Shown: positions 797 through 12,766 of the stretch, one piece after another
Numbering within the stretch: the stretch's first letter is position 1
Layout: each line of letters begins with the position of its first letter
Assembly: GCF_056746865.1 (NCBI RefSeq)
Contig: NZ_JBWKMP010000007.1
Origin: a plasmid
Length of the DNA stretch: 12,766 nucleotides
Direction: 5' to 3' (one strand)
The notes under the pieces: generated by a model
Databases searched by the model: none
What the model was told of the DNA's origin: nothing
Seen by the model: only the letters and a program-made list of their open reading frames with translations
Program-made: the position numbers and the translations under genes

Positions 797-1153
797 ATGG
801 GGGTAATGATACCGATGAAACGCGAGAGGATGCTCACGATACGGGTTACTGATGATGAACATGCCCGGTTACTGGAACGCTGTGAGGGTAAACAACTGGC
901 GGTATGGATGCGGCGGGTCTGCCTGGGGGAGCCGGTTGCCCGTTCCGGGAAGCTGCCGACACTGGCACCGCCGTTACTGCGTCAGCTGGCCGCCATCGGG
1001 AATAACCTGAATCAGACCGCGAGGAAGGTGAACAGCGGGCAGTGGTCTTCCGGTGATCGGGTTCAGGTGGTGGCCGCACTGATGGCCATCGGGGATGAGC
1101 TGCGCCGGCTGCGTCTGGCCGTCAGGGAACAGGGGGCGCGGGATGATAGTTAA
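797..1153 (+). CDS. mbeC: Mobilisation accessory protein MbeC (MobC-like relaxosome component)
   Basis: 118-aa ORF immediately upstream of and overlapping the relaxase gene, in the ColE1 mbeC position. Start codon uncertain (ATG at 797, 806 or 815); purine-rich stretch aagggggga upstream. Confidence 0.75.
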   Translation: MGVMIPMKRERMLTIRVTDDEHARLLERCEGKQLAVWMRRVCLGEPVARSGKLPTLAPPLLRQLAAIGNNLNQTARKVNSGQWSSGDRVQVVAALMAIGDELRRLRLAVREQGARDDS

Positions 1154-2717
1154 ATTTCATGCCAGGGGAAAAGGTGGTGGCAGTGGTCCGGTTGATTACC
1201 TGCTGGGGAGGGAGCGTAACCGCGAAGGCGCAACGGTGCTTCAGGGTAATCCGGAAGAAGTCCGGGAACTCATCGATGCCACGCCATTTGCGAAGAAATA
1301 CACGTCAGGCGTTCTGTCGTTCGCGGAGAAGGAGTTGCCGCCGGGAGGACGTGAAAAAGTGATGGCGAGCTTTGAGCGCGTACTGATGCCAGGTCTCGAA
1401 AAGAATCAGTACAGCATCCTGTGGGTGGAGCACCAGGACAAGGGACGGCTTGAGCTGAATTTTGTCATTCCGAACATGGAGCTACAGACCGGAAAACGTC
1501 TCCAGCCGTACTACGACCGGGCAGACAGGCCGAGAATTGATGCCTGGCAGACGCTGGTGAATCACCATTACGGGCTGCATGACCCCAACGCCCCGGAGAA
1601 CCGCCGGATACTGACTCTCTCTGATAACCTGCCGGAAACGAAACAGGCGCTTGCTGAGAGCGTCACACGCGGGATAGACGCTCTTTATCATGTAGGGGAG
1701 ATAAAAGGCCGTCAGGATGTGATTCAGGCGCTCACAGAGGCGGGGCTTGAAGTGGTCAGGGTGACGCGAAGCAGCATCAGCATTGCAGACCCGAACGGCG
1801 GGAAGAATATCAGGCTGAAAGGAGCGTTTTATGAGCAATCTTTTACAGACGGGCGCGGAGTTCGAGAAAAAGCTGAAAGAGAGAGCCGAATCTACAGAGA
1901 AAGTGCTGAACAACGAGTTCAGGAGGCTCGGCGAATCTGTAAGCGAGGTTGTGACATCAAACGAGACGAAAATCAGAGACGCTATAGCCCTGTTCACAGC
2001 CTCGACAGAGGAATCGCTGGAGAAACACCGGGAAGGGGTGAAAGAGGCGATGAGGCAGCACAGGAAGGACGTGTTAAAGCTGGCAGGGAATACGGGCATG
2101 ATGTTACTGGGGATAGTCTTTCTCCTGTTTACCGCGAGTGGCGGGACGCTCTGGTATCTTGGCGGGAGGATACAGGCGAACCTGGAAGATATCAGGAAGC
2201 AGGAAGAGACATTGCAGAAACTGAACGCGAAGACATGGGGCGTGGAGTTCGTGCAGGACGGGAACAGGAAATTTCTGGTCCTTCCGTACGGGAAATCAGC
2301 AGAGGTGATTCCCTTTCAGGGGAAAGAGTGGGTACATCTGAAGGAGTGACACAGAGTGACAGAGCTGGAAACACATTTGCTGAACGCCTTAGAGCAGCTG
2401 CAACAGGACTATATGCAGCGGCTGAACGAATGGGAGAGCGCCTTCGTGGAATTGCAGAAGATGTTTTCGCTTACGCAACGGGACAACGCGATGCTGAACG
2501 AGCGGGTCATGCAGTTGAGTCAGCAGGTGCAGCACTTGAGCGAGCAGACAGAACACTTGAGCGAGCAGACAGAACACTTGAGCCAGTTATACAGCGAGAG
2601 CAGGAGATAAGGGACGAACTACTGATACAGGAACGTGAACATGAGCTATTCCTAGAGCGTGAGCGCCATCTGGAAATACAGGAACGGACACTGGATGGCC
2701 CGTCGCTGGGATGGTAA
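1143..2717 (+). CDS. mbeA: ColE1-type relaxase MbeA (MobA, HEN/MOB-P family)
   Basis: 524-aa ORF starting MIVKFHARGKGGGSGPVDYLLG with internal ATG at 1143, matching ColE1 MbeA from memory. Contains WVEHQDKGRLELNFV region. Overlaps mbeC 3' end by 11 nt. Confidence 0.9.
   Translation: MIVKFHARGKGGGSGPVDYLLGRERNREGATVLQGNPEEVRELIDATPFAKKYTSGVLSFAEKELPPGGREKVMASFERVLMPGLEKNQYSILWVEHQDKGRLELNFVIPNMELQTGKRLQPYYDRADRPRIDAWQTLVNHHYGLHDPNAPENRRILTLSDNLPETKQALAESVTRGIDALYHVGEIKGRQDVIQALTEAGLEVVRVTRSSISIADPNGGKNIRLKGAFYEQSFTDGRGVREKAERESRIYRESAEQRVQEARRICKRGCDIKRDENQRRYSPVHSLDRGIAGETPGRGERGDEAAQEGRVKAGREYGHDVTGDSLSPVYREWRDALVSWREDTGEPGRYQEAGRDIAETEREDMGRGVRAGREQEISGPSVREISRGDSLSGERVGTSEGVTQSDRAGNTFAERLRAAATGLYAAAERMGERLRGIAEDVFAYATGQRDAERAGHAVESAGAALERADRTLERADRTLEPVIQREQEIRDELLIQEREHELFLERERHLEIQERTLDGPSLGW
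1831..2349 (+). CDS. mbeB: Mobilisation protein MbeB, encoded in the +1 frame inside mbeA
   Basis: 172-aa ORF fully nested in mbeA in another frame, with a hydrophobic segment (MMLLGIVFLLFTASGGTLWYL). Same size and position as ColE1 MbeB as I recall it. Confidence 0.7.
   Translation: MSNLLQTGAEFEKKLKERAESTEKVLNNEFRRLGESVSEVVTSNETKIRDAIALFTASTEESLEKHREGVKEAMRQHRKDVLKLAGNTGMMLLGIVFLLFTASGGTLWYLGGRIQANLEDIRKQEETLQKLNAKTWGVEFVQDGNRKFLVLPYGKSAEVIPFQGKEWVHLKE
2356..2610 (+). CDS. mbeD: Mobilisation protein MbeD (about 9 kDa), nested in the 3' part of mbeA; GTG start
   Basis: 84-codon ORF beginning with GTG at 2356 directly after the mbeB stop (2347-2349). Coiled-coil-like sequence. Position and size match ColE1 mbeD from memory. 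Confidence 0.55.
   Translation: MTELETHLLNALEQLQQDYMQRLNEWESAFVELQKMFSLTQRDNAMLNERVMQLSQQVQHLSEQTEHLSEQTEHLSQLYSESRR
2533..2583. repeat. Perfect 21-bp tandem duplication (cacttgagcgagcagacagaa x2, plus 9-bp partial third copy) inside overlapping mbeA/mbeD
   Basis: Direct reading: units at 2533-2553 and 2554-2574, partial at 2575-2583. In frame in both genes (ERADRTL x2 in MbeA, EQTEHLS x2 in MbeD). Confidence 0.9.
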
Positions 2718-2825
2718 CCAAAGACAGGCTAAAGTGTTGTCAGCGCGTTTCCGGTGCATTTTTTTGGATAATGGTTGGTTCAGGGCACTAGGAACTAGCT
2801 TCAGTCAGGCCTTGCTGAAAACACA

Positions 2826-2961
2826 GGAACGCGTTAAAACGCATACGGACGCGTTTCTGGCGCTCAAAAACCATGGGGTTAGTGTGGGTAGTGTGTATAG
2901 CAACAGGAGCCTGGAACGCGTTCCGCTTCTTCTGTAATCGACGCCAGAATGCGTTTAATGC
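2826..2961. promoter_or_regulatory. Cluster of dyad-symmetric motifs (GGAACGCGTT x2 including perfect palindrome GGAACGCGTTCC; inverted pair gacgcgtttctggcgc / gacgccagaatgcgttt)
   Basis: Direct reading: ggaacgcgtt at 2826-2835 and 2913-2922; gacgcgtttctggcgc at 2848-2863 with inverted partner cgccagaatgcg at 2942-2953. Function unknown; may be protein-binding sites. Confidence 0.3.
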
Positions 2962-3100
2962 TTCTTCTGATGGTATCAGAGAGGAGCTGCTTGAGTTATT
3001 CCTGTTGGCCACAGAGCGTAATTATCTCCTTTTCAGATCCACACGGGGATACGTCAGAATCGGAACTGAGCAAGGATTACTGAAAGATACTGTTTGCCAG

Positions 3101-3125
3101 AAAAAAAATCCTCATACATGATGAG
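3101..3125 (-). terminator. Hairpin followed by T8 on the minus strand (candidate intrinsic terminator for minus-strand transcription leaving the AT-rich island)
   Basis: Plus strand aaaaaaaatcctcatacatgatgaggat: 8-bp stem atcctcat/atgaggat, 5-nt loop. The A8 run on plus becomes a U-tract after the stem on the minus strand. Confidence 0.45.
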
Positions 3126-3420
3126 GATAAAGTCTTAAAGGTCCATTCTATGGAGTGTCGGATTGAAAAATTTCTCCGGATGATATCCTTCACAGTTTAA
3201 ATGTGATTTCAACCATAAGTTTTTTATGGATTTTGTTAAATAAAAAAGAATTGAGTCGTGTTTCTGATATGTCTGAATATAATAAGTGAACAGTTATAAA
3301 ATAATTGTTTTATATTTATTGTGAGTTTGATGTTATGTTCTGCATAAATAACTGTAGTTTAGAATATTATTCTTTTATATTTATAGCTGTGAGATGATAA
3401 ATTATAAGTGTTCTTTGTGC

Positions 3421-3448
3421 TATAAAGAACCCCCCGTATAAGGGGGGG
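3421..3448 (-). terminator. C6/G7 hairpin (ccccccgtataaggggggg) with U-rich tail on the minus strand
   Basis: Stem 3430-3435 / 3442-3448. Minus-strand reading gives the stem followed by ttcttta. Confidence 0.35.
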
Positions 3449-3564
3449 TAAAAGATGGGTTTACTTCTTTTTAGTCCATGCCCTGGTGAGCTACATGAAG
3501 CTCGACACTACAGTAAAGATTTGCAGTTTTTTTGAACTTTACGCAAGCAATTTATTTACATTGT

Positions 3565-3593
3565 AAAGAAAACCCCCTCAATTCCGGAGGGGG
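3565..3593 (-). terminator. Hairpin ccccctc-aattccg-gaggggg with U-tract on the minus strand
   Basis: Stem 3573-3579 / 3587-3593. The plus-strand A-run 3566-3572 becomes ttttctt 3' of the stem on the minus strand. Confidence 0.4.
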
Positions 3594-3898
3594 AGTGTAG
3601 GGAAGTGCCTGATTTATTTTATGTACGCGCAAAAATGAGATAGCTTTTATTAGATATCATCAGCCCTGTCTGCATCAGTCAGCTCCTTACAGCGTCAGGA
3701 GTACTGATGAAGGGGGGGAACGTTCCTGCGTTTTTGCAAAGGCAATCCGGCTAGAGGCTTTACTACGCAGAAACATTCCGGACAACTTTTTACCCCAGTG
3801 TAACTTGTAGATCAACCAGATTTTGTTGCAGTAAAAATACAGTGGTTTCGAATTTGTAACATTTGTCACAAAAATAACATCAATATGTTGGTTTTCTG

Positions 3899-3928
3899 TT
3901 GATAAATGGTTTGGTCGCTGATTATGAT
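3899..3928 (+). promoter_or_regulatory. Sigma70-like promoter candidate (TTGATA, 18-bp spacer, TATGAT)
   Basis: -35 ttgata at 3899-3904; -10 tatgat at 3923-3928. Followed by a leader hairpin gtactcc/ggagtac (3935-3952) that would sequester the AGGAG at 3944-3948. Confidence 0.3.
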
Positions 3929-3992
3929 TTCCTTGTACTCCACAGGAGTACAGTCATGTGCATACTAAAATCCGTGTTTTCGATAAAATTAA

Positions 3993-4020
3993 GGCCGTGA
4001 TACAGAATCACGGCTTTTTT
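3993..4020 (+). terminator. Rho-independent terminator (ggccgtga-tacagaa-tcacggc + T6)
   Basis: 7-8-bp GC-rich stem 3993-4000 / 4008-4014, T-run 4015-4020. Confidence 0.6.
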
Positions 4021-4056
4021 CTTGCCTGAAAGGATCATTTACGCTAGAAGAATTAT

Positions 4057-4119
4057 GAGCGCGTCTCTGGTGTTTGTTGCAGGGATAATATCTAATATGG
4101 GGCACCGGAAACGCGCTCT
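4057..4119. repeat. Dyad module A: 16-bp imperfect inverted repeat (gagcgcgtctctggtg ... caccggaaacgcgctc) around a loop of about 31 nt
   Basis: Direct reading. Paralogous to module B; the arms differ from B by a compensatory change (gcgcg/cgcgc in A versus gcgtg/cacgc in B). Confidence 0.5.
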
Positions 4120-4197
4120 CCCTTCGTATACAGAATGCCCATTAATTTCTTCTTCCTGATTTTCCAGACATATATTCTTGTGTAAATTAAAAAACAG

Positions 4198-4272
4198 AGC
4201 GTGTTTCTGGTGTGAATTTGTTGGCTACAATGTGCATTGTTGTTCTGTGTTCCAGAAACACGCTTCTTTTTT
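4198..4272. repeat. Dyad module B: 13-bp perfect inverted repeat (agcgtgtttctgg ... ccagaaacacgct), loop about 38 nt, A-run upstream and T6 downstream (bidirectional terminator-like)
   Basis: Direct reading: arms 4199-4211 and 4252-4264, T-run 4267-4272, A-run 4190-4195. Confidence 0.5.
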
Positions 4273-4395
4273 GAGATGCACATCGGTCTTATACAAAGAG
4301 GGATGGTTGTATCTGTGTCAGAGTTTTGTTATTTTTTGTATGCTCAGTTATTGATGGTTAATAATATCAAGAAAATCAGCAAGTTCCTTACACTA

Positions 4396-4421
4396 CCCCT
4401 CTTCAGTAGAGGGGTTTTTTT
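4396..4421 (+). terminator. Rho-independent terminator (cccctct-tcagt-agagggg + T7)
   Basis: Stem 4396-4402 / 4408-4414, T-run 4415-4421. Confidence 0.65.
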
Positions 4422-4490
4422 ATCTGGTACGCCGTAAAACCCGGTCCTTCAGGGCGTAGAGGATGTCAAAAATTTCTTCGAAAGGTAATA

Positions 4491-4721
4491 CCCGGTATCC
4501 CGCTCATGCTGGCGAACCCAGACACGCAGGGTCTCTGGCGTACAGCCAATCTTTGGAGCAATGGAACAAATTGCCGCCCATTGTGAGTCATATTCGCCCT
4601 GGCTTTCCAGAACCATACGAACTGCCCGTTGACGGACTTCGGGGGAAAAACGAGTATTTTTAGTCATCCTGTTTACATCTTTCTCAGGAAGTTTAGTCTC
4701 CAGGATTTCCGGGGCGGTTCA
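4491..4721 (-). mobile_element. 5' remnant of an IS3-family element (IS629/IS1203-like): terminal inverted repeat plus the first 59 codons of orfA, truncated
   Basis: Minus-strand ORF 4449..4667 begins [59 protein letters not shown], which matches IS629-type OrfA from memory, then diverges into an unrelated 13-aa tail. The reverse complement of 4690-4721 is the IS-end-like tgaaccgccccggaaatcctggagactaaac. Confidence 0.7.
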
Positions 4722-4949: not shown

Positions 4950-5200
4950 AACTTCTATTTTGTGGAATCGAAAACAGCTGAAAATTGTGAAAAAAAACCG
5001 TTTCAGTCGTCTCAGTAAGGAAATTCGCTTGTGATTCACCTGGATGCATAGGTATGCATAAGGTTAAAATTTATCAGGCGCGATCGCGGTAGTTTTTCGG
5101 GGGGGTTGTTGCGATTTTTACCTGTCTGCTGCCGTGATTGCGCTGAATGCATTTCAGCGGTGCGTACAATTAAGGGATTATGGTAAATCCACTTACTGTC
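4950..5200. other. cer: cer-like multimer resolution site with XerC/XerD core ggtgcgtacaa-ttaaggga-ttatggtaaat at 5159-5188
   Basis: Core is identical to the ColE1 cer crossover site as I recall it. Upstream accessory region (gcataaggttaaaatttatcaggcgcgatcgcgg ...) also resembles cer, including paired tgcata half-sites near 5042-5060 (possible ArgR box). Confidence 0.7.
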
Positions 5201-6392: not shown

Positions 6393-7456
6393 ATGGAAAC
6401 AGCTGTAGCGTACTATAAAGATGGTGTTCCTTATGATGATAAGGGGCAGGTAATCATTACTCTTTTGAATGGTAATCCAGACGGGAGTGGCTCTGGCGGC
6501 GGTGGTGGAACTGGAGGTAGCAAAAGTGAAAGTTCTGCAGCCATTCATGCCACAGCTAAATGGTCTACTGCTCAATTGAAGAAAACGCAGGCAGAACAGG
6601 CTGCCCGGGCAAAAGCTGCCGCAGAAGCACAGGCTAAAGCAAAAGCAAACCGGGATGCGCTGACTCAACATCTGAAGGATATTGTGAATGAGGCGCTTCG
6701 TCATAATTCCACTCATCCGGAGGTTATTGACCTGGCTCATGCCAATAATGCAGCGATGCAGGCAGAAGCAGAGCGGTTGCGCCTTGCAAAAGCAGAAGAA
6801 AAAGCCCGTAAAGAAGCGGAAGCTGCGGAAAAGGCTTTTCAGGAGGCAGAACAACGACGCAAAGAGATAGAGAAGGAGCAGGCTGAAACAGAACGCCAGT
6901 TGAAACTGGCTGAAGCTGAAGAGAAACGGCTGGCAGCATTGAATGAAGAGGCCCGGGCAGTGGAGGTGGCACAAAAAAATCTTGCTGCTGCACAATCTGA
7001 GCTGGCGAAAGTGGATGAAGAGATTAAGACTCTCAATACCCGTTTAAGCTCCAGTATTCATGCCCGTGATGCAGAAATGAATACGCTGTCCGGAAAACGA
7101 AATGAGCTGGCTCAGGCATCTGCTAAATATAAGGAACTTGATGAACTGGTCAAAAAATTGTCACCAAGAGCTAATGATCCGCTTCAGAGTCGTCCTTTTT
7201 TCTATGCCACCAGTCGACGGACGGGAGCCGGTAAGATTATGGAGGAAAACAAAAACAGGTAACAGCATCAGAAACGCGTATTAACCAACTTAATGCTGAG
7301 ATAAATGGAATTCAGGGGGCTATGTCTCAGGCTAATAATAATCGTAATACAGCTGTTTTACGTGTTCATGAATCTGAAGAAAATTTGAAAACAGCGCAGA
7401 CTAATCTCCTGAACTCGCAGATTAAGGATGCTGTGGATGCAACAGTTAGCTTTTAT
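6393..7456 (+). pseudogene. cea: Colicin E1-type gene, 5' part (translocation and receptor-binding domains), with a 1-nt frameshift in an A-run (7246-7249) and truncated by the IS21-family insertion at 7456/7457
   Basis: METAVAYYKDGVPYDDKGQVIITLLNGNPDGSGSGGGGG... matches colicin E1 from memory. Frame 0 stops at 7260-7262; the colicin-like reading continues in the -1 frame (VTASETRIN...DAVDATVSFY) to 7456. Confidence 0.85.
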
Positions 7457-7658
7457 TGCAAAATGGCATCTGAATCGATCGCAGTTTGGCATTCGAATCG
7501 ATCATGATTTGGCATCCATCTCCGATCACAGTTTGGCATCACAATCGATCACGATTTGGCATGCTTCCGATCATTGATTGGCATCCTGCCAGTCACTCCG
7601 GGAATTAACTCTTTTCACCACAGTCTCCATTGCCGTGTTTAAACCAGTGGAGACGTCA

Positions 7659-9224
7659 ATGTCCAGAAAGAGAAAATCCAGGAGCACTATGGAAACCTGT
7701 TTTAAGATTCTTCAGCTCAAGTTCGACAAGAAGCTGACTAACCGTTGTATCGGACTGACGTTACACATCAGCGCCTCAACCGTTTTTGAGGTTCTTGCCC
7801 GCTTCAAAGCCTCTTCTCTGTCATGGCCATTACCTGCTGATATATCCCATGACACGCTGGAGAAACTCATTTTTCCGCCCAAAGACACCTTTGCATCAGA
7901 GCTTGTAATGCCTGACATGTTGTACCTCGATACGGAAATGAGAAAACCAGGTGTGACGCGGCAACTGTTGTGGATGGAATACAAGGCACAGGCGGGTAAC
8001 AAAGCGATGGGATACTCGCACTTCTGCCGTTGCTACCGGGAGTGGAAAAAAACGCGACGTCTCTCCATGCGCCAGGAGCATCGTGCCGGCGAAAAGCTTT
8101 TTATCGACTTCTGTGGTCCTACGGTTCCTGTTATTAATCCGGACACCGGTGAGATACGCCGCGTGGCAATCTTCGTGGCCGTAATGGGGGCGTCCAACTA
8201 TACCTACGTTGAAGCGTGCGAAGGTCAGGACATGATGTCATGGTTAAATGCCCACAGCCGTTGCCTGACCTTCCTGGGCGGCGTACCGAAGCTGCTCATC
8301 CCCGATAACCTCAGAAGCGCAGTGAAAAAGGCCGATCGATATGAGCCTGTCATCAACGACAGTTATCAGGCACTGGCTGAGCACTATGGCACGGTTATCA
8401 TCCCGGCCCGACCACGCAAACCTAAAGATAAACCAAAAGCAGAAAACGGCGTCCTCATCGTCGAACGATGGCTTCTTGCCCGCATCCGTAATGAAACCTT
8501 CCACACGCTCAGGGCGCTGAATGCGCGCCTTAGGGAGTTACTGACAGACATGAATAACCGGCCAATGAAGGGGTACGGCAATCAAACCCGTGCAGAACGC
8601 TTCCGCATACTGGATGCGCCAGCACTCTCTCCGCTGCCTCTGGCACCTTATGAATACACGGAATACAAAGCTGTGAAGGTTGGCCCTGACTACCACGTTG
8701 AATATGCCCGTCACTGGTACTCCGTTCCACACGAACTGGTCGGTCAGCGTCTGTCACTGAAGGCGGGGCAGTCGGTGGTACAGCTCTGGCACAAGGGGCA
8801 GTGTGTGGCGCAACATCCGCGCAGCACACATGAATATAAACACACAACCAATCCGCTTCACATGCCAGAGCGCCACCGGCAGCACGGGACATGGACACCG
8901 GAACGCCTGATCGAGCAGGGAAAACGTACGGGCCCGTCCACAGGCCGGGTGGTTGAATCCATGCTGAAGGCAAAACCCCATCCGGAACTGGCTTATCGTG
9001 CAGTTCTGGGGCTGCTGGCACTTCAGAAAAAATACGGCCCGGAACGGCTGGAAAAGGCCTGTTACGTTGCCCTGCACTATAACGCCCCTGACAGACGCTT
9101 TATCGACAATCTGCTGCGTCACCATCGGGAGAACCTGGAGCTTCCATTATCCCGCCAGGGCGAACAACATCCGGCATATGCTTCAGAGCATGAAAACCTG
9201 CGTGGTCCGGGCTACTACCACTGA
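7659..9224 (+). CDS. istA: IS21-family transposase IstA (521 aa)
   Basis: Long ORF with a DDE-type integrase core and the IstA-typical layout; followed 16 nt later by istB. ATG at 7659 preceded by ggag. Confidence 0.85.
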   Translation: MSRKRKSRSTMETCFKILQLKFDKKLTNRCIGLTLHISASTVFEVLARFKASSLSWPLPADISHDTLEKLIFPPKDTFASELVMPDMLYLDTEMRKPGVTRQLLWMEYKAQAGNKAMGYSHFCRCYREWKKTRRLSMRQEHRAGEKLFIDFCGPTVPVINPDTGEIRRVAIFVAVMGASNYTYVEACEGQDMMSWLNAHSRCLTFLGGVPKLLIPDNLRSAVKKADRYEPVINDSYQALAEHYGTVIIPARPRKPKDKPKAENGVLIVERWLLARIRNETFHTLRALNARLRELLTDMNNRPMKGYGNQTRAERFRILDAPALSPLPLAPYEYTEYKAVKVGPDYHVEYARHWYSVPHELVGQRLSLKAGQSVVQLWHKGQCVAQHPRSTHEYKHTTNPLHMPERHRQHGTWTPERLIEQGKRTGPSTGRVVESMLKAKPHPELAYRAVLGLLALQKKYGPERLEKACYVALHYNAPDRRFIDNLLRHHRENLELPLSRQGEQHPAYASEHENLRGPGYYH

Positions 9225-9240
9225 CAGAAGGAACAACAGT

Positions 9241-9996
9241 ATGAGTGATAACCTGTTAAACAAACTGACCCAACTGAAACTCCCGGCGATGGCCGGGAGC
9301 CTGATACGGCAGCGGGAAACGCCTCAGACCTACGACGAACTGTCGTTCGAGGAAAGGCTGACGCTGCTGGTTGATGACGAGCTTCTGAGCAGGGAAAACA
9401 GCCGTGTGGCACGGTTGAGAAAAAATGCCGGCCTGAAATACCAGGCAACACCGGAAGGGCTGCGCTATCCGGCCTCAAGAGGTCTGCGGGCTGAACAGAT
9501 GAGAGAACTGCTGAACGGCCACTACATAACCCACAGGAAAAACCTGCTGATAACCGGTCCGACAGGATGTGGCAAGAGCTGGATAGCCAATGCGCTGGGC
9601 GAACAGGCATGTCGACAGAAACACAGCGTCCGGTACTGTAGAACCGGGCGATTACTGGAACAACTGGCTCAGGGACGTGTTGATGGCAGCTGGCTGAAAT
9701 ATCTGAAACAGTTGCAAAAAATACAGGTTCTAATCCTGGACGATCTGGGGCTGGAACAGTTAAGTAACGCCCAGTGTAATGACCTTCTGGAGCTCATAGA
9801 GGATCGTTACGGACAAAGCAGCACGATAGTGGTAAGCCAGTTCCCGGTAGATAAATGGCATGGTCTGATGGAGAACCCAACAACAGCAGATGCCATCCTG
9901 GACAGACTGGTACATAACTCACACCGGGTGGTCCTTCAGGGAGAGTCACTGAGGAAAAATCCCCCGGTAGTGGAAAGCAGCGAAAAAACGCGTTAA
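9241..9996 (+). CDS. istB: IS21-family helper ATPase IstB (251 aa)
   Basis: Walker A GPTGCGKS and Walker B VLILDDLG motifs. RBS gaagga upstream of the ATG at 9241. Confidence 0.9.
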   Translation: MSDNLLNKLTQLKLPAMAGSLIRQRETPQTYDELSFEERLTLLVDDELLSRENSRVARLRKNAGLKYQATPEGLRYPASRGLRAEQMRELLNGHYITHRKNLLITGPTGCGKSWIANALGEQACRQKHSVRYCRTGRLLEQLAQGRVDGSWLKYLKQLQKIQVLILDDLGLEQLSNAQCNDLLELIEDRYGQSSTIVVSQFPVDKWHGLMENPTTADAILDRLVHNSHRVVLQGESLRKNPPVVESSEKTR

Positions 9997-10095
9997 AAAG
10001 CGGTAGAAAAAGTTAAGTTCCCGGTTGATCGAATGGATGCGAATCGCTGATCGGACTTCGATGCCAATCCGTGATCGAATAGAGCGGAATACGCA

Positions 10096-10593
10096 CTTTT
10101 ATCAAACGCTATCTGAAAAATATGGTGAAAAATATTCAAAAATGGCACAGGAACTTGCTGATAAGTCTAAAGGTAAGAAAATCAGCAATGTGAATGAAGC
10201 TCTAGCTGCTTTTGAAAAATACAAGGATGTTTTAAATAAGAAATTCAGCAAAGCAGACCGTGATGCGATTTTCAATGCACTGGAATCGGTTAAGTATGAA
10301 GACTGGGCTAAGCATTTAGATCAGTTTGCTAAGTACTTGAAGATTACGGGACATGTTTCTTTTGGATATGATGTGGTATCTGATATCCTAAAAATTAAGG
10401 ATACAGGTGACTGGAAGCCACTATTTCTTACATTAGAGAAGAAAACTGTAGATGCTGGAGTTAGTTATATTGTTTTAGTGTGCTTGCTGGAACTACATTA
10501 GGTATCTGGGGGATTGCTATTGTTACAGGCATTCTATGTGCCTTTATTGACAAGAATAAACTTAATACTATAAATGATGTGTTGGGTATTTAA
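10096..10593 (+). pseudogene. cea: Colicin E1-type gene, 3' part (pore-forming domain), carrying a roughly 10-nt deletion/frameshift near 10473 in the hydrophobic helical hairpin
   Basis: [28 protein letters not shown]...[20 protein letters not shown] matches the colicin E1 channel domain from memory. Frame stops at 10499-10501; the remaining C-terminus ([35 protein letters not shown]) is in another frame ending at 10591-10593. Confidence 0.8.
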
Positions 10594-10978: not shown

Positions 10979-11040
10979 ATGAGGAAAAGATTTTTTGTGG
11001 GAATATTAGCTATAAACCTCCTTGTTGGATGTCAGGCTAA
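10979..11040 (+). pseudogene. kil: Colicin lysis (release) lipoprotein gene, 5' part (MRKRFFVGILAINLLVGCQA...), interrupted by IS5 after codon 20
   Basis: RBS taagga; signal peptide with lipobox LVGC as in ColE1 Kil. Reading frame enters the IS5 end at 11041. Confidence 0.8.
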
Positions 11041-12235
<1,195 letters not shown>

Positions 12236-12315
12236 CTAACTATATACGTGATGTTCAGGGAGGGACTGTGGCTCCATCATCTTCTTCTAAACTGACGGGG
12301 ATCTCTGTTCAGTAG
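12236..12315 (+). pseudogene. kil: Colicin lysis lipoprotein gene, 3' part (...[25 protein letters not shown])
   Basis: Continues the kil frame across the CTAA duplication; stop at 12313-12315. Confidence 0.8.
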
Positions 12316-12370: not shown

Positions 12371-12766
12371 GTAAACGAAAAAACCGCCTGGGGAGGCGGT
12401 TTGATCGAAGGTTAAGTCAGTTGGGGAACTGCTTAACCGAGGTAACTGGCTTCAGCAGAGCGCAGATACCAAATACTGTCCTTCCAGTGTAGCCGTAGTC
12501 GGGCCACTACTTCAAGAACTCTGTTGCACCATTTGCGCCATCATCGCTCTGCTAACCAAGTTACCAACGGCTGCTGCCAGTGGCGCTTTGTCGTGTCTTA
12601 CCGGGTTGGACTCAAGACGATAGTTACCGGATAAGGCGCAGCGGTCGGGCTGAACGGGGGGTTCGTGCACACAGCCCAGCTTGGAGCGAACGACCTACAC
12701 CGAACTGAGATACCAACAGCGTGAGCTATGAGAAAGCGCCACGCTTCCCGAAGGGAGAAAGGCGGA
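12371..12766 (+). ncRNA. RNAII: RNA II replication primer precursor, 5' portion (continues into 1-about 160 if circular)
   Basis: Homology by eye to the ColE1 RNA II 5' region, with stem-loops such as ccgcctggggaggcgg (12384-12399). Downstream sequence is near-identical to pMB1 (ggtaactggcttcagcagagcgcagataccaaatactgtcctt...). Confidence 0.75.
12372..12479 (-). ncRNA. RNAI: RNA I antisense copy-number control RNA (about 108 nt)
   Basis: Complement of the first roughly 108 nt of RNA II. The minus strand begins acagtatttggtatctgcgctctgctgaagccagttacc as in pMB1 RNA I, and ends in a stem-loop plus U-tract (complement of aaaaaaccgcctggggaggcgg). Confidence 0.7.

Follow-up and report, generated by a model that had tools for sequence, protein, structure and literature searches.

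A palindrome with mirrored start signals in an unannotated plasmid island and the putative minus-strand RNA unit around it

The window analysed here, a stretch of 12,766 nucleotides (assembly GCF_056746865.1, contig NZ_JBWKMP010000007.1), is a ColE1-type E. coli plasmid. In addition to the RNAI gene, the bom and cer sites, and the mobilisation genes listed in Table 1, it carries exc genes and a pore-forming colicin, the latter disrupted by an IS21-family insertion, with an element of the IS5-like type further along. Neither tRNA nor tmRNA genes were found in the window. Homology to other ColE1-like backbones ends at ~2860 and resumes at ~5040. Between these points lie an AT-rich island of ~1.65 kb (2847-4500, 29-44% G+C) and an IS3 fragment, both absent from the ColE1 backbone, and the palindrome under study is part of this island. 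In none of the records is any feature annotated on the island, which also lacks a conserved long ORF and a Pfam match. An 82-aa ORF at 2873-3121 was rejected as a gene because non-triplet indels break its frame in a relative, and a protein pseudogene was likewise rejected, since the ORFs of both lineages compared are without a Pfam match. A 128-aa ORF of plasmid p135-2, searched against 5.8 billion proteins, matches only these same plasmids.

Relatives of the island fall into three lineages. The first comprises ~99% identical, 8.9-kb Col plasmids such as pSMS35_8; the second, ~80-84% identical and referred to below as the 84% lineage, is found on large conjugative plasmids such as p135-2, always among IS elements; and the third consists of scattered modules on 5.3-5.6-kb Rep_3/MOBQ 'Col8282' plasmids, represented here by L019. 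The three plasmid types are often found together in one E. coli strain, and most such strains are associated with poultry. Searches for homologues suitable for covariation analysis, covering plasmids, E. coli genomes, phages, metagenomes, viruses, and species-representative genomes, returned only these three lineages. Two matches in Pseudomonas were discarded as chance 19-mers inside unrelated sequence, and no chromosomal copies of the island or of its hairpin family were found in E. coli. A full-text literature search found no account of this plasmid region or its motifs.

Table 1. Coordinates of the palindrome, the surrounding modules, and the plasmid loci referred to in the text
Feature	Position	Strand	Description
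bom/oriT	475-289		reverse orientation
MobC + MbeA relaxase	797-2717		
Intrinsic terminator T1	3565-3593	-	stem 3593-3573, then UUUUCUUU
AU-rich tract and conserved 3' motif	3594-3654	-	motif AAAUCAGGCACUUCCCUACACU at 3615-3594
18-codon ORF behind AAGGAG	3619-3675	-	MQTGLMISNKSYLIFART; no conserved gene
Stem-loop 2 (pairing A1)	3655-3711	-	closing stem 3657-3663/3704-3710; inner CCTG/CAGG 3665-3668/3696-3699
Palindrome, outer stem	3673-3679/3703-3709		CATCAGT/ACTGATG, 7 bp, read from the sequence
Palindrome, inner stem	3683-3686/3698-3701		CTCC/GGAG, 4-6 bp, read from the sequence
15-codon ORF behind AGGAG	3707-3754	+	MKGGNVPAFLQRQSG; no conserved gene
C-rich single-stranded linker	3712-3716	-	G run on the plus strand
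5' stem-loop H3	3717-3779	-	15-bp stem, ~31-nt loop with invariant motif CUCUAGCCGGAU
Promoter-like box	3815-3787	-	-35 TTGATC 3815-3810, 17-nt spacer, -10 TAAAAA 3792-3787
Collinear paralogue U5	4143-4428	+	promoter-like box, hairpin 4190-4272, second hairpin, same 3' motif and terminator
Exact cer core	5159-5188		
RNAI	12375-12477		Rfam, 87 bits; only Rfam family passing threshold in the window

The palindrome that an earlier note on this DNA had reported at 3673-3709 is real and present at that position. Its outer and inner stems are separated by an internal loop, consisting of cag after the left outer arm (3' of 3679) and a single t before the ACTGATG that begins at 3703, and the apical loop is 11 nt long (ttacagcgtca). 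On the plus strand, 5 nt separate AGGAG (3697-3701) from the downstream ATG (3707-3709), and on the minus strand 7 nt separate AAGGAG (3688 down to 3683) from its ATG (3675 down to 3673); the Shine-Dalgarno (SD) spacing lies within 5-9 nt of the start codon on both strands. The 'mirror' arises because the 3' arm of the dyad reads GGAG..ATG, and it follows from the symmetry, so that it counts as one observation and not as two. Both the SD and the AUG are buried in the stem of the palindrome on either strand. The combination itself is at chance level: GGAG-N4-9-ATG occurs 14 times in the window, compared to 10.3 +/- 3.1 by chance.

The 37-mer folds as plus-strand RNA with -15.5 kcal/mol (z -4.0, 0 of 200 shuffles) and as minus-strand RNA with -14.0 kcal/mol (z -3.5), which is slightly less stable. 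Its rank is 24th when all 37-nt windows across the 12.8 kb are compared. Hairpins of -15.5 or lower number 24 in the whole window, compared to 8-23 in shuffles, whereas in the AT-rich island two are observed and 0.25 expected by chance, with at least one appearing in 20% of the island shuffles. The stability of the palindrome is only mildly unusual and not exceptional. Moreover, the palindrome fails as an intrinsic terminator, being followed by GAAGGGGGGG on the plus strand and by CAGACAGGG on the minus strand and having an 11-nt loop, and it was not called in a terminator scan, though T1 was. It is neither a cer/XerCD site nor an oriT (bom), both of which lie elsewhere; a comparison of bom with 3560-3800 gave only chance words of 8-14 nt. 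No Rfam family covers 3673-3709, and the best matches in 2700-4700 have E-values of at least 0.5, far below the threshold.

The two ORFs behind these signals are 15 codons (plus strand) and 18 codons (minus strand) long, in agreement with the range of 15-18 codons given earlier. In the window, a run of seven G residues directly follows the ATG AAG of the plus-strand ORF, whereas the near-identical sequenced relatives examined (L001, L005, and L011) have six; the ORF therefore has 15 codons in the window and 31 codons, in another frame, in these relatives. Over 3560-3840, all 22 near-identical E. coli records differ from the window, those listed reaching at most 99.6% identity (one difference in 281). 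In the 84% lineage the start codon is changed from ATG to ATA, and a 5-nt indel, polymorphic inside that lineage, shifts the frame again; in L019 an ATG without an SD opens 63 codons. Altogether, the length of the plus-strand ORF is 15, 31, 39, or 63 codons across the relatives, with ~21 codons in pPKF11 according to our own reading of the alignment. The minus-strand ORF fares no better: in p135-2 its SD is altered from AAGGAG to AAAGAC and its stop codon is lost (TAA to CAA), the substitutions amounting to two synonymous, four non-synonymous, and one stop-loss change, and in L019 neither the start nor the ORF is found, though the nucleotides can be aligned with indels. SD, start, frame, and length are thus unconserved in the homologues of both ORFs, neither of which shows a coding pattern of substitution. 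A type I toxin-antitoxin locus was also looked for, but the ORFs are neither conserved nor hydrophobic, and there is no Hok/Sok or other match. Judged from these alignments, the mirrored SD-ATG signals start no conserved gene. This bears out the earlier suggestion that the site is something other than a gene. A divergent translation initiation region finds no support, because the paired signals derive by symmetry from a single motif and both ORFs lack conservation.

The dyad itself is not conserved either. Compared to the 84% lineage, the left arm carries three substitutions (T3679C, C3683G, and C3686T) and the right arm one (G3709A), none of which is compensatory, and a 22-nt stretch comprising the 11-nt loop and most of the right arm is invariant. 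In L019 no counterpart of the left arm is found. Across the three lineages, the palindromic pairing, here termed A2, leaves 74% of cells paired and has zero pairs changed on both sides. Hairpins that serve as internal controls in the same alignment behave differently: the terminator at 3991-4017 shows compensatory C>T/G>A changes plus loop changes, and the hairpin at 3935-3952 and T1 change in the loop only. The palindrome shows the opposite pattern, with an invariant loop and mutated stems.

On the minus strand, the palindrome forms the apical part of a larger structure, stem-loop 2, whose pairing A1 (closed by AUCAG/CUGAU, 3710-3657) competes with A2 for the arm 3696-3710. RNAalifold applied to the three lineages picks A1, with 89% of cells paired and without covariation; the closing stem never covaries because its sequence is conserved. 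In the window, A1 and A2 are isoenergetic as minus-strand RNA (-19.4 and -19.6, respectively), whereas the minimum-energy structure of p135-2 is a fold of the A1 type (-21.6, z -3.8), and a slight shift of the A1 register accommodates all three of its substitutions T3660G, C3664T, and G3709A. The regulatory hairpin that had been proposed for the site is consequently left with weak support. A hairpin can form at the site, but the palindromic pairing is unconserved; a different, conserved hairpin uses the right arm of the palindrome, and the left arm is missing in the third lineage.

Stem-loop 2 is one of a series of modules arranged collinearly on the minus strand (Table 1), for which the predicted start of transcription is ~3780. 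The promoter-like box lies seven nt upstream of H3 on this strand and scores 8.2 in both lineages in our own PWM scan, a score that recurs roughly every 300 nt in DNA of this AT content; a consensus scan did not call it. Its hexamers, TTGATC and TAAAAA, are identical in the 84% lineage, in which 8 of the 17 spacer bases differ and the spacer length is constant, and in L019 TTGCGC-17-TAAAAG precedes H3 by the same distance. The final T of a -10 box is highly conserved, and both TAAAAA and TAAAAG are without that T. The box and the terminator are conserved in position, with an atypical -10 element.

H3 folds with -27.3 (z -4.8) on the minus strand and -20.2 on the plus strand, and the corresponding values in p135-2 are -32.2 and -24.0, so that the minus-strand form is more stable by 7-8 kcal/mol in both lineages. 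In the three lineages 100% of cells are paired, and three pairs show changes of both partners, such as GGAA/UUCC to GGGG/CCCC; indels occur only in the loop, where most of the substitutions are found as well. The linker that follows is C-rich also in p135-2 (CCAUCC) and L019 (CCCCAC). Further downstream, 60-80 AU-rich nt separate stem-loop 2 from the minus-strand terminator. T1 retains its stem in p135-2, with three loop bases changed and a longer U run, and in L019 the corresponding minus-strand position is occupied by a different, non-homologous terminator of 12 bp. The architecture is shared by the three lineages, in all of which the implied RNAs are ~215 nt long and fold with z of ~-3 to -3.8. 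Since only three lineages enter the alignment of the unit, the power of the structure conservation test is low. Folding of the whole unit does not discriminate between the strands (plus -72.2, z -3.2; minus -65.3, z -3.0). The unit matches no Rfam family in searches of the window and of L019, and no target complementary to the conserved H3 loop was found on the plasmid.

Similar modules recur within the island. The 3' motif and terminator of the unit are paralogous to 4366-4419 on the plus strand (40 of 54 positions match), where they close the collinear paralogue U5. The hairpin-arm repeat GCGCGTTTCTGG is present in six copies at no more than one mismatch, all within 1.5 kb (2743-4263), and the island family consists of imperfect palindromes of 70-90 bp with GCGCGTTTCTGG/CCAGAAACGCGC arms, which the palindrome at 3673-3709 does not have. 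Hairpins of -14 or lower number seven in the island, compared to 0.95 expected and a maximum of five in 40 shuffles. The promoter-like box recurs before the paralogous hairpins, at a fixed distance in each family member, and for each of the six H hairpins tested the better fold is the one on the strand with this box upstream. An 857-bp element with terminal inverted repeats (3569-3622/4366-4419) was rejected because the motif occurs only once in L019 and each arm forms the 3' end of one of two outward-facing units. A sigma-54 promoter in H4 was also rejected, the GG-N8-GC spacing being wrong by eye.

The explanation that we favour, with modest confidence, is that the palindrome represents an incidental, lineage-specific alternative helix in stem-loop 2 of a putative minus-strand non-coding RNA of ~215 nt. 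Such an RNA would be initiated at ~3780 downstream of the promoter-like box and would comprise H3, the C-rich linker, stem-loop 2, the AU-rich tract, and the conserved 3' motif, in this order, before ending at T1. In its stem-loop 2, the conserved arm (5'-UCAUCAGUACUCCUG in the minus-strand RNA, 3696-3710 in plus-strand coordinates) would normally pair with 3657-3668; in the lineage of the window, a second CATCAG..CTCC (3673-3686) would offer a nearer partner and thereby create the dyad. The mirrored RBS-ATG signals could then be regarded as a by-product of symmetry, and no peptide would be expected from a conserved ORF. We infer the transcription of the unit, its strand, and its ends from the positions of the box and terminator and from the strand preference of H3. 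A regulatory role of the RNA would presumably be exerted through the invariant H3 loop or the C-rich linker.

Several other explanations have to be weighed against this one. It is possible, if on balance doubtful, that the palindrome arose purely by chance in decaying IS-associated filler and that nothing at 3655-3815 is transcribed or selected. The rarity figures are compatible with this, given 0.25 such hairpins per shuffled island, at least one in 20% of the shuffles, and a rank of 24 in the window; furthermore, the surrounding segment is ~85% identical to its relative, which is the island-wide average, and IS fragments flank the island wherever it occurs, while no record annotates it. Chance alone, however, would hardly account for the hairpin excess of the island (7 vs 0.95), the covariation in H3, the strongly patchy conservation, by which stems and terminators are spared and loops and spacers changed, and the same module order in an unrelated Rep_3/MOBQ plasmid. 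It is improbable that single-stranded DNA, and not RNA, is the form in which the hairpins act, for instance in priming of the ssi/primosome-assembly type during mobilisation. Long imperfect hairpins are typical of ssi signals, and those of the island resemble them in this respect and in their location in non-coding DNA of mobilisable plasmids, adjoining the relaxase genes. H3 is moreover most stable on the minus strand, which, given the ColE1 nick site and the reverse orientation of bom, would presumably be the transferred one. The comparison, made by shape and strand preference, nevertheless reveals a mixed orientation, in that the paralogous hairpins H2, H4, and H5 favour the opposite strand, and the orientation relative to the relaxase differs among plasmid contexts. 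A promoter-like box before each hairpin and the terminators that end U3 and U5 would also be needless for single-stranded DNA signals.

Two coding explanations seem less probable still. A small plus-strand protein, 31 aa long in the relatives with six G residues (MKGGTFLRFCKGNPARGFTTQKHSGQLFTPV), might be translated from the sequestered SD/AUG, with the copy in the window being a frameshift mutant; we consider this very improbable. The SD and its spacing are good, L001 (31 aa) and L019 (63 aa) keep this ATG and frame open and share K..PAR.FT.QKH, and p135-2 gains an in-frame ATG five codons downstream. Nevertheless, the start is ATA in the 84% lineage and L019 is without an SD, while the G7 run and the 5-nt indel cause frameshifts and the length varies among 15, 31, 39, and 63 codons. 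The shared residues are encoded by the invariant loop and the stem of H3, where the differences fall mostly at first and second codon positions, and the covariation of the H3 arms is unlike what coding constraint would predict; neither Pfam nor the databases yield a relative outside these plasmids. The least probable explanation, which we find scarcely credible, is an 18-aa minus-strand peptide, a leader or type I toxin-like product whose translation is gated by the hairpin. The strong SD (AAGGAG) 7 nt before the ATG, the position of T1 20 nt after the ORF, and the conservative nature of the four amino-acid changes in p135-2 speak for such a peptide. Against it stand the destroyed SD (AAAGAC) and lost stop codon of p135-2, the absence of a start or ORF from L019, and a hydrophobicity too low for a membrane toxin.

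If the preferred reading of a minus-strand RNA is adopted, the unit is comparable to several known systems. Like ColE1 RNAI, R1 CopA, IncI/B Inc RNA, Sok, and Rcd, it is plasmid-encoded and within the range of tens to a few hundred nt, with a 5' stem-loop bearing a conserved loop, a rho-independent terminator, and no conserved ORF. Unlike these RNAs, it has neither an Rfam match nor a complementary target on the plasmid, is longer than the classical antisense RNAs, and lies outside replication, partition, and killer loci. The placement of GGAG and AUG on the 3' side of a stem, the very short ORF, and the terminator are reminiscent of the SD-sequestering hairpins in type I toxin mRNAs (hok, tisB) and in leader peptides, from which the locus differs in that its ORFs, SDs, and starts are unconserved, the peptides are not hydrophobic, and no attenuation target lies downstream. 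With its GCGCGTTTCTGG/CCAGAAACGCGC family of imperfect palindromes, the island also resembles repeated extragenic palindromes and MITE-like repeats; unlike these, the family is absent from E. coli chromosomes and has a promoter-like box for each member. The island module family is unannotated and, by literature search, so far undescribed, and the putative unit is functionally closest to known plasmid regulatory RNAs.

A palindrome that contains GGAG and ATG always shows 'mirror' starts, and here neither serves a conserved gene. The island that surrounds it is of modest interest, being an unannotated, ORF-free 1.65 kb with repeated and partly covarying hairpin, promoter, and terminator modules, which recur on two other plasmid types in the same strains. 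Tentatively, and at no more than a low probability, a plasmid small-RNA family that has so far gone undescribed, with members of ~215-235 nt, may be encoded by the island and its relatives and be common to co-resident plasmids. In each member, the promoter-like box may be followed by a 5' stem-loop whose arms are of the GCGCGTTTCTGG type, then by a second hairpin and an AU-rich tract, and finally by a terminator; the paralogues on each plasmid may include U3 (minus strand), U5 (plus strand), and perhaps H2 and H4, and the family may span ColE1-like, Col8282-like, and large conjugative plasmids. Such RNAs could mediate cross-talk between plasmids or between plasmid and host, and in the lineage of the window the two isoenergetic pairings of stem-loop 2, A1 and A2, could serve as a conformational switch. 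Should the modules prove to be small RNAs, they would join the few regulatory RNAs of plasmids that are encoded away from replication and killer loci. A minor observation concerns GGCAATCCGG, which is similar to the sfx sites of shufflons, probably by chance.

A family of imperfect palindromes, 60–90 bp long with arms GCGCGTTTCTGG / CCAGAAACGCGC and loops of 27–47 nt, recurs in the window, in L019, which represents the Col8282-type plasmid lineage, and in a further sequence, L016 (Table). Six arm copies with at most one mismatch were found, every one of them inside 2743-4263 of the window, where about 0.06 would be expected by chance according to our own estimate, which was not computed by a tool. 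The arms are retained between lineages and the indels fall in the loops. The pattern TTGnnn-17-TA(A/G)AAn is located 6–8 nt upstream of most members, and the strand bearing it is the better-folding strand for all of them. Members are also present 3′ of mbeA in ColE1-like plasmids that lack the island. The left edge of the island suggests recombination at an arm of this family, because the window shares the junction motif with NZ_LR890611, a backbone that lacks the island, and with the large-plasmid relative.

Table. Coordinates of repeats, putative units, and the island edge
Feature	Sequence and position	Strand	Remarks
Palindrome family	window 2741-2800, 2849-2921, 3717-3779, 4057-4118, 4190-4272		
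Palindrome family	L019 1876-1940, 2420-2478		
Palindrome family	L016 1029-1090, 1134-1192		
Left junction, ColE1-like backbone/island	window 2846-2860		inside motif GGRCGCGWTTCTGG
Nearly invariant block	window 3100-3180	-	ends with minus-strand terminator 3128-3108 and T8
sRNA-like unit	window 3899-4022	+	promoter match, hairpin, invariant block, terminator
45-codon TTG ORF	window 4022-4186 region		34 aa if started at ATG 4055: MSASLVFVAGIISNMGHRKRALPSYTECPLISSS
Unit U5	window 4143-4428	+	paralogue, collinear with the minus-strand unit holding the dyad 3673-3709
Short element (..CGCCGTAAAACCCGGTCCTTCAGGGCGTAGAGGATGTC..)	window 4414-4474; L019 2328-2377, 2595-2638, 3150-3189		

The putative unit U5 opens with a promoter-like box and the hairpin 4190-4272; a U-rich linker then leads to a second hairpin at ~4274-4314, after which come an AU-rich tract, AAAUCAGCAAGUUCCUUACACU, and the terminator 4395-4415. 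A relative of its 3′ half (80–83%) is carried by Col8282-type plasmids. Within this region the strongest promoter match, TTGATA-18-TATGAT with a conserved -10, belongs to the unit at 3899-4022. This unit includes the hairpin TGTACTCC-aca-GGAGTACA, in which lineage changes are confined to the loop. It also contains a 51-nt block without any change between lineages, a 14-codon ORF, MCILKSVFSIKLRP, with AGGAG in front, and a terminator (3991-4017) that shows a compensatory C>T/G>A change; its 3′ part is recognisably matched by L019 3106-3134. Furthermore, ATCACA-16-TATCAT (3207-3180), which is promoter-like on the minus strand, immediately precedes the nearly invariant block 3100-3180, and the two could form another putative sRNA-like unit of ~70 nt.

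The best-conserved block of the island, 3452-3537 (+), has 4 differences in ~85 nt compared with the 84% lineage of large conjugative plasmids. It coincides with a 26-codon ORF, MGLLLFSPCPGELHEARHYSKDLQFF, in which two changes are synonymous, one is non-synonymous, and the stop is changed from TGA to TAA, and it is flanked on either side by minus-strand terminators. The 45-codon TTG ORF is of equal length in both lineages and overlaps the island stem-loop H4, and the N-terminal half of its 34-aa form is hydrophobic. On the minus strand, the conserved promoter-like sequence TTTACA-16-GAAAAT (4186-4159) is predicted to drive antisense transcription over this ORF, toward the bidirectional terminator 4014-3994. 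As read from the sequence, this layout of ORF, antisense promoter-like site, and bidirectional terminator resembles a type I toxin-antitoxin locus.

The stretch 3200-3440 is the most AT-rich (G+C 29–30%) and the least conserved, with 30–75% identity to the relative. A pair of 26-nt direct repeats, 3294-3319 and 3359-3384, lies in it with a spacing of 65 bp, and a short match links 3309-3338 to L019 1945-1974, within the AT-rich stretch of that plasmid. The homopolymer at 3712-3718 is G7 in the window, whereas it is G6 in those near-identical relatives whose sequences were examined. Of 22 near-identical E. coli records, not one is identical to the window throughout 3560-3840. The G7 is a mutation private to the window or else a sequencing error in the homopolymer.

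Matches to the short element containing CGCCGTAAAACCCGGTCCTTCAGGGCGTAGAGGATGTC are 40–55 nt long at 85–95% identity, and the element underlies the matches seen in 4,205 E. coli genomes out of 5,426, almost every one at a chromosomal place. Two of its three copies in the Col8282-type plasmid are inverted, and it looks like the end of a small repeated or mobile element.

Compared with the 8.9-kb relatives, the window has two insertions, 7456-10096 and 11040-12236. One is an IS21-family element (transposase and IstB) that splits a pore-forming colicin gene, and the other is an element with an IS5-type DDE transposase. The three plasmid types bearing these modules are often found together in single strains (53 records, 36 genomes), which are mostly poultry-associated and include 135, EF5-18-41, TUM1886, GF60, GF43, PKF11, LH10-b-1, and LH50-c.
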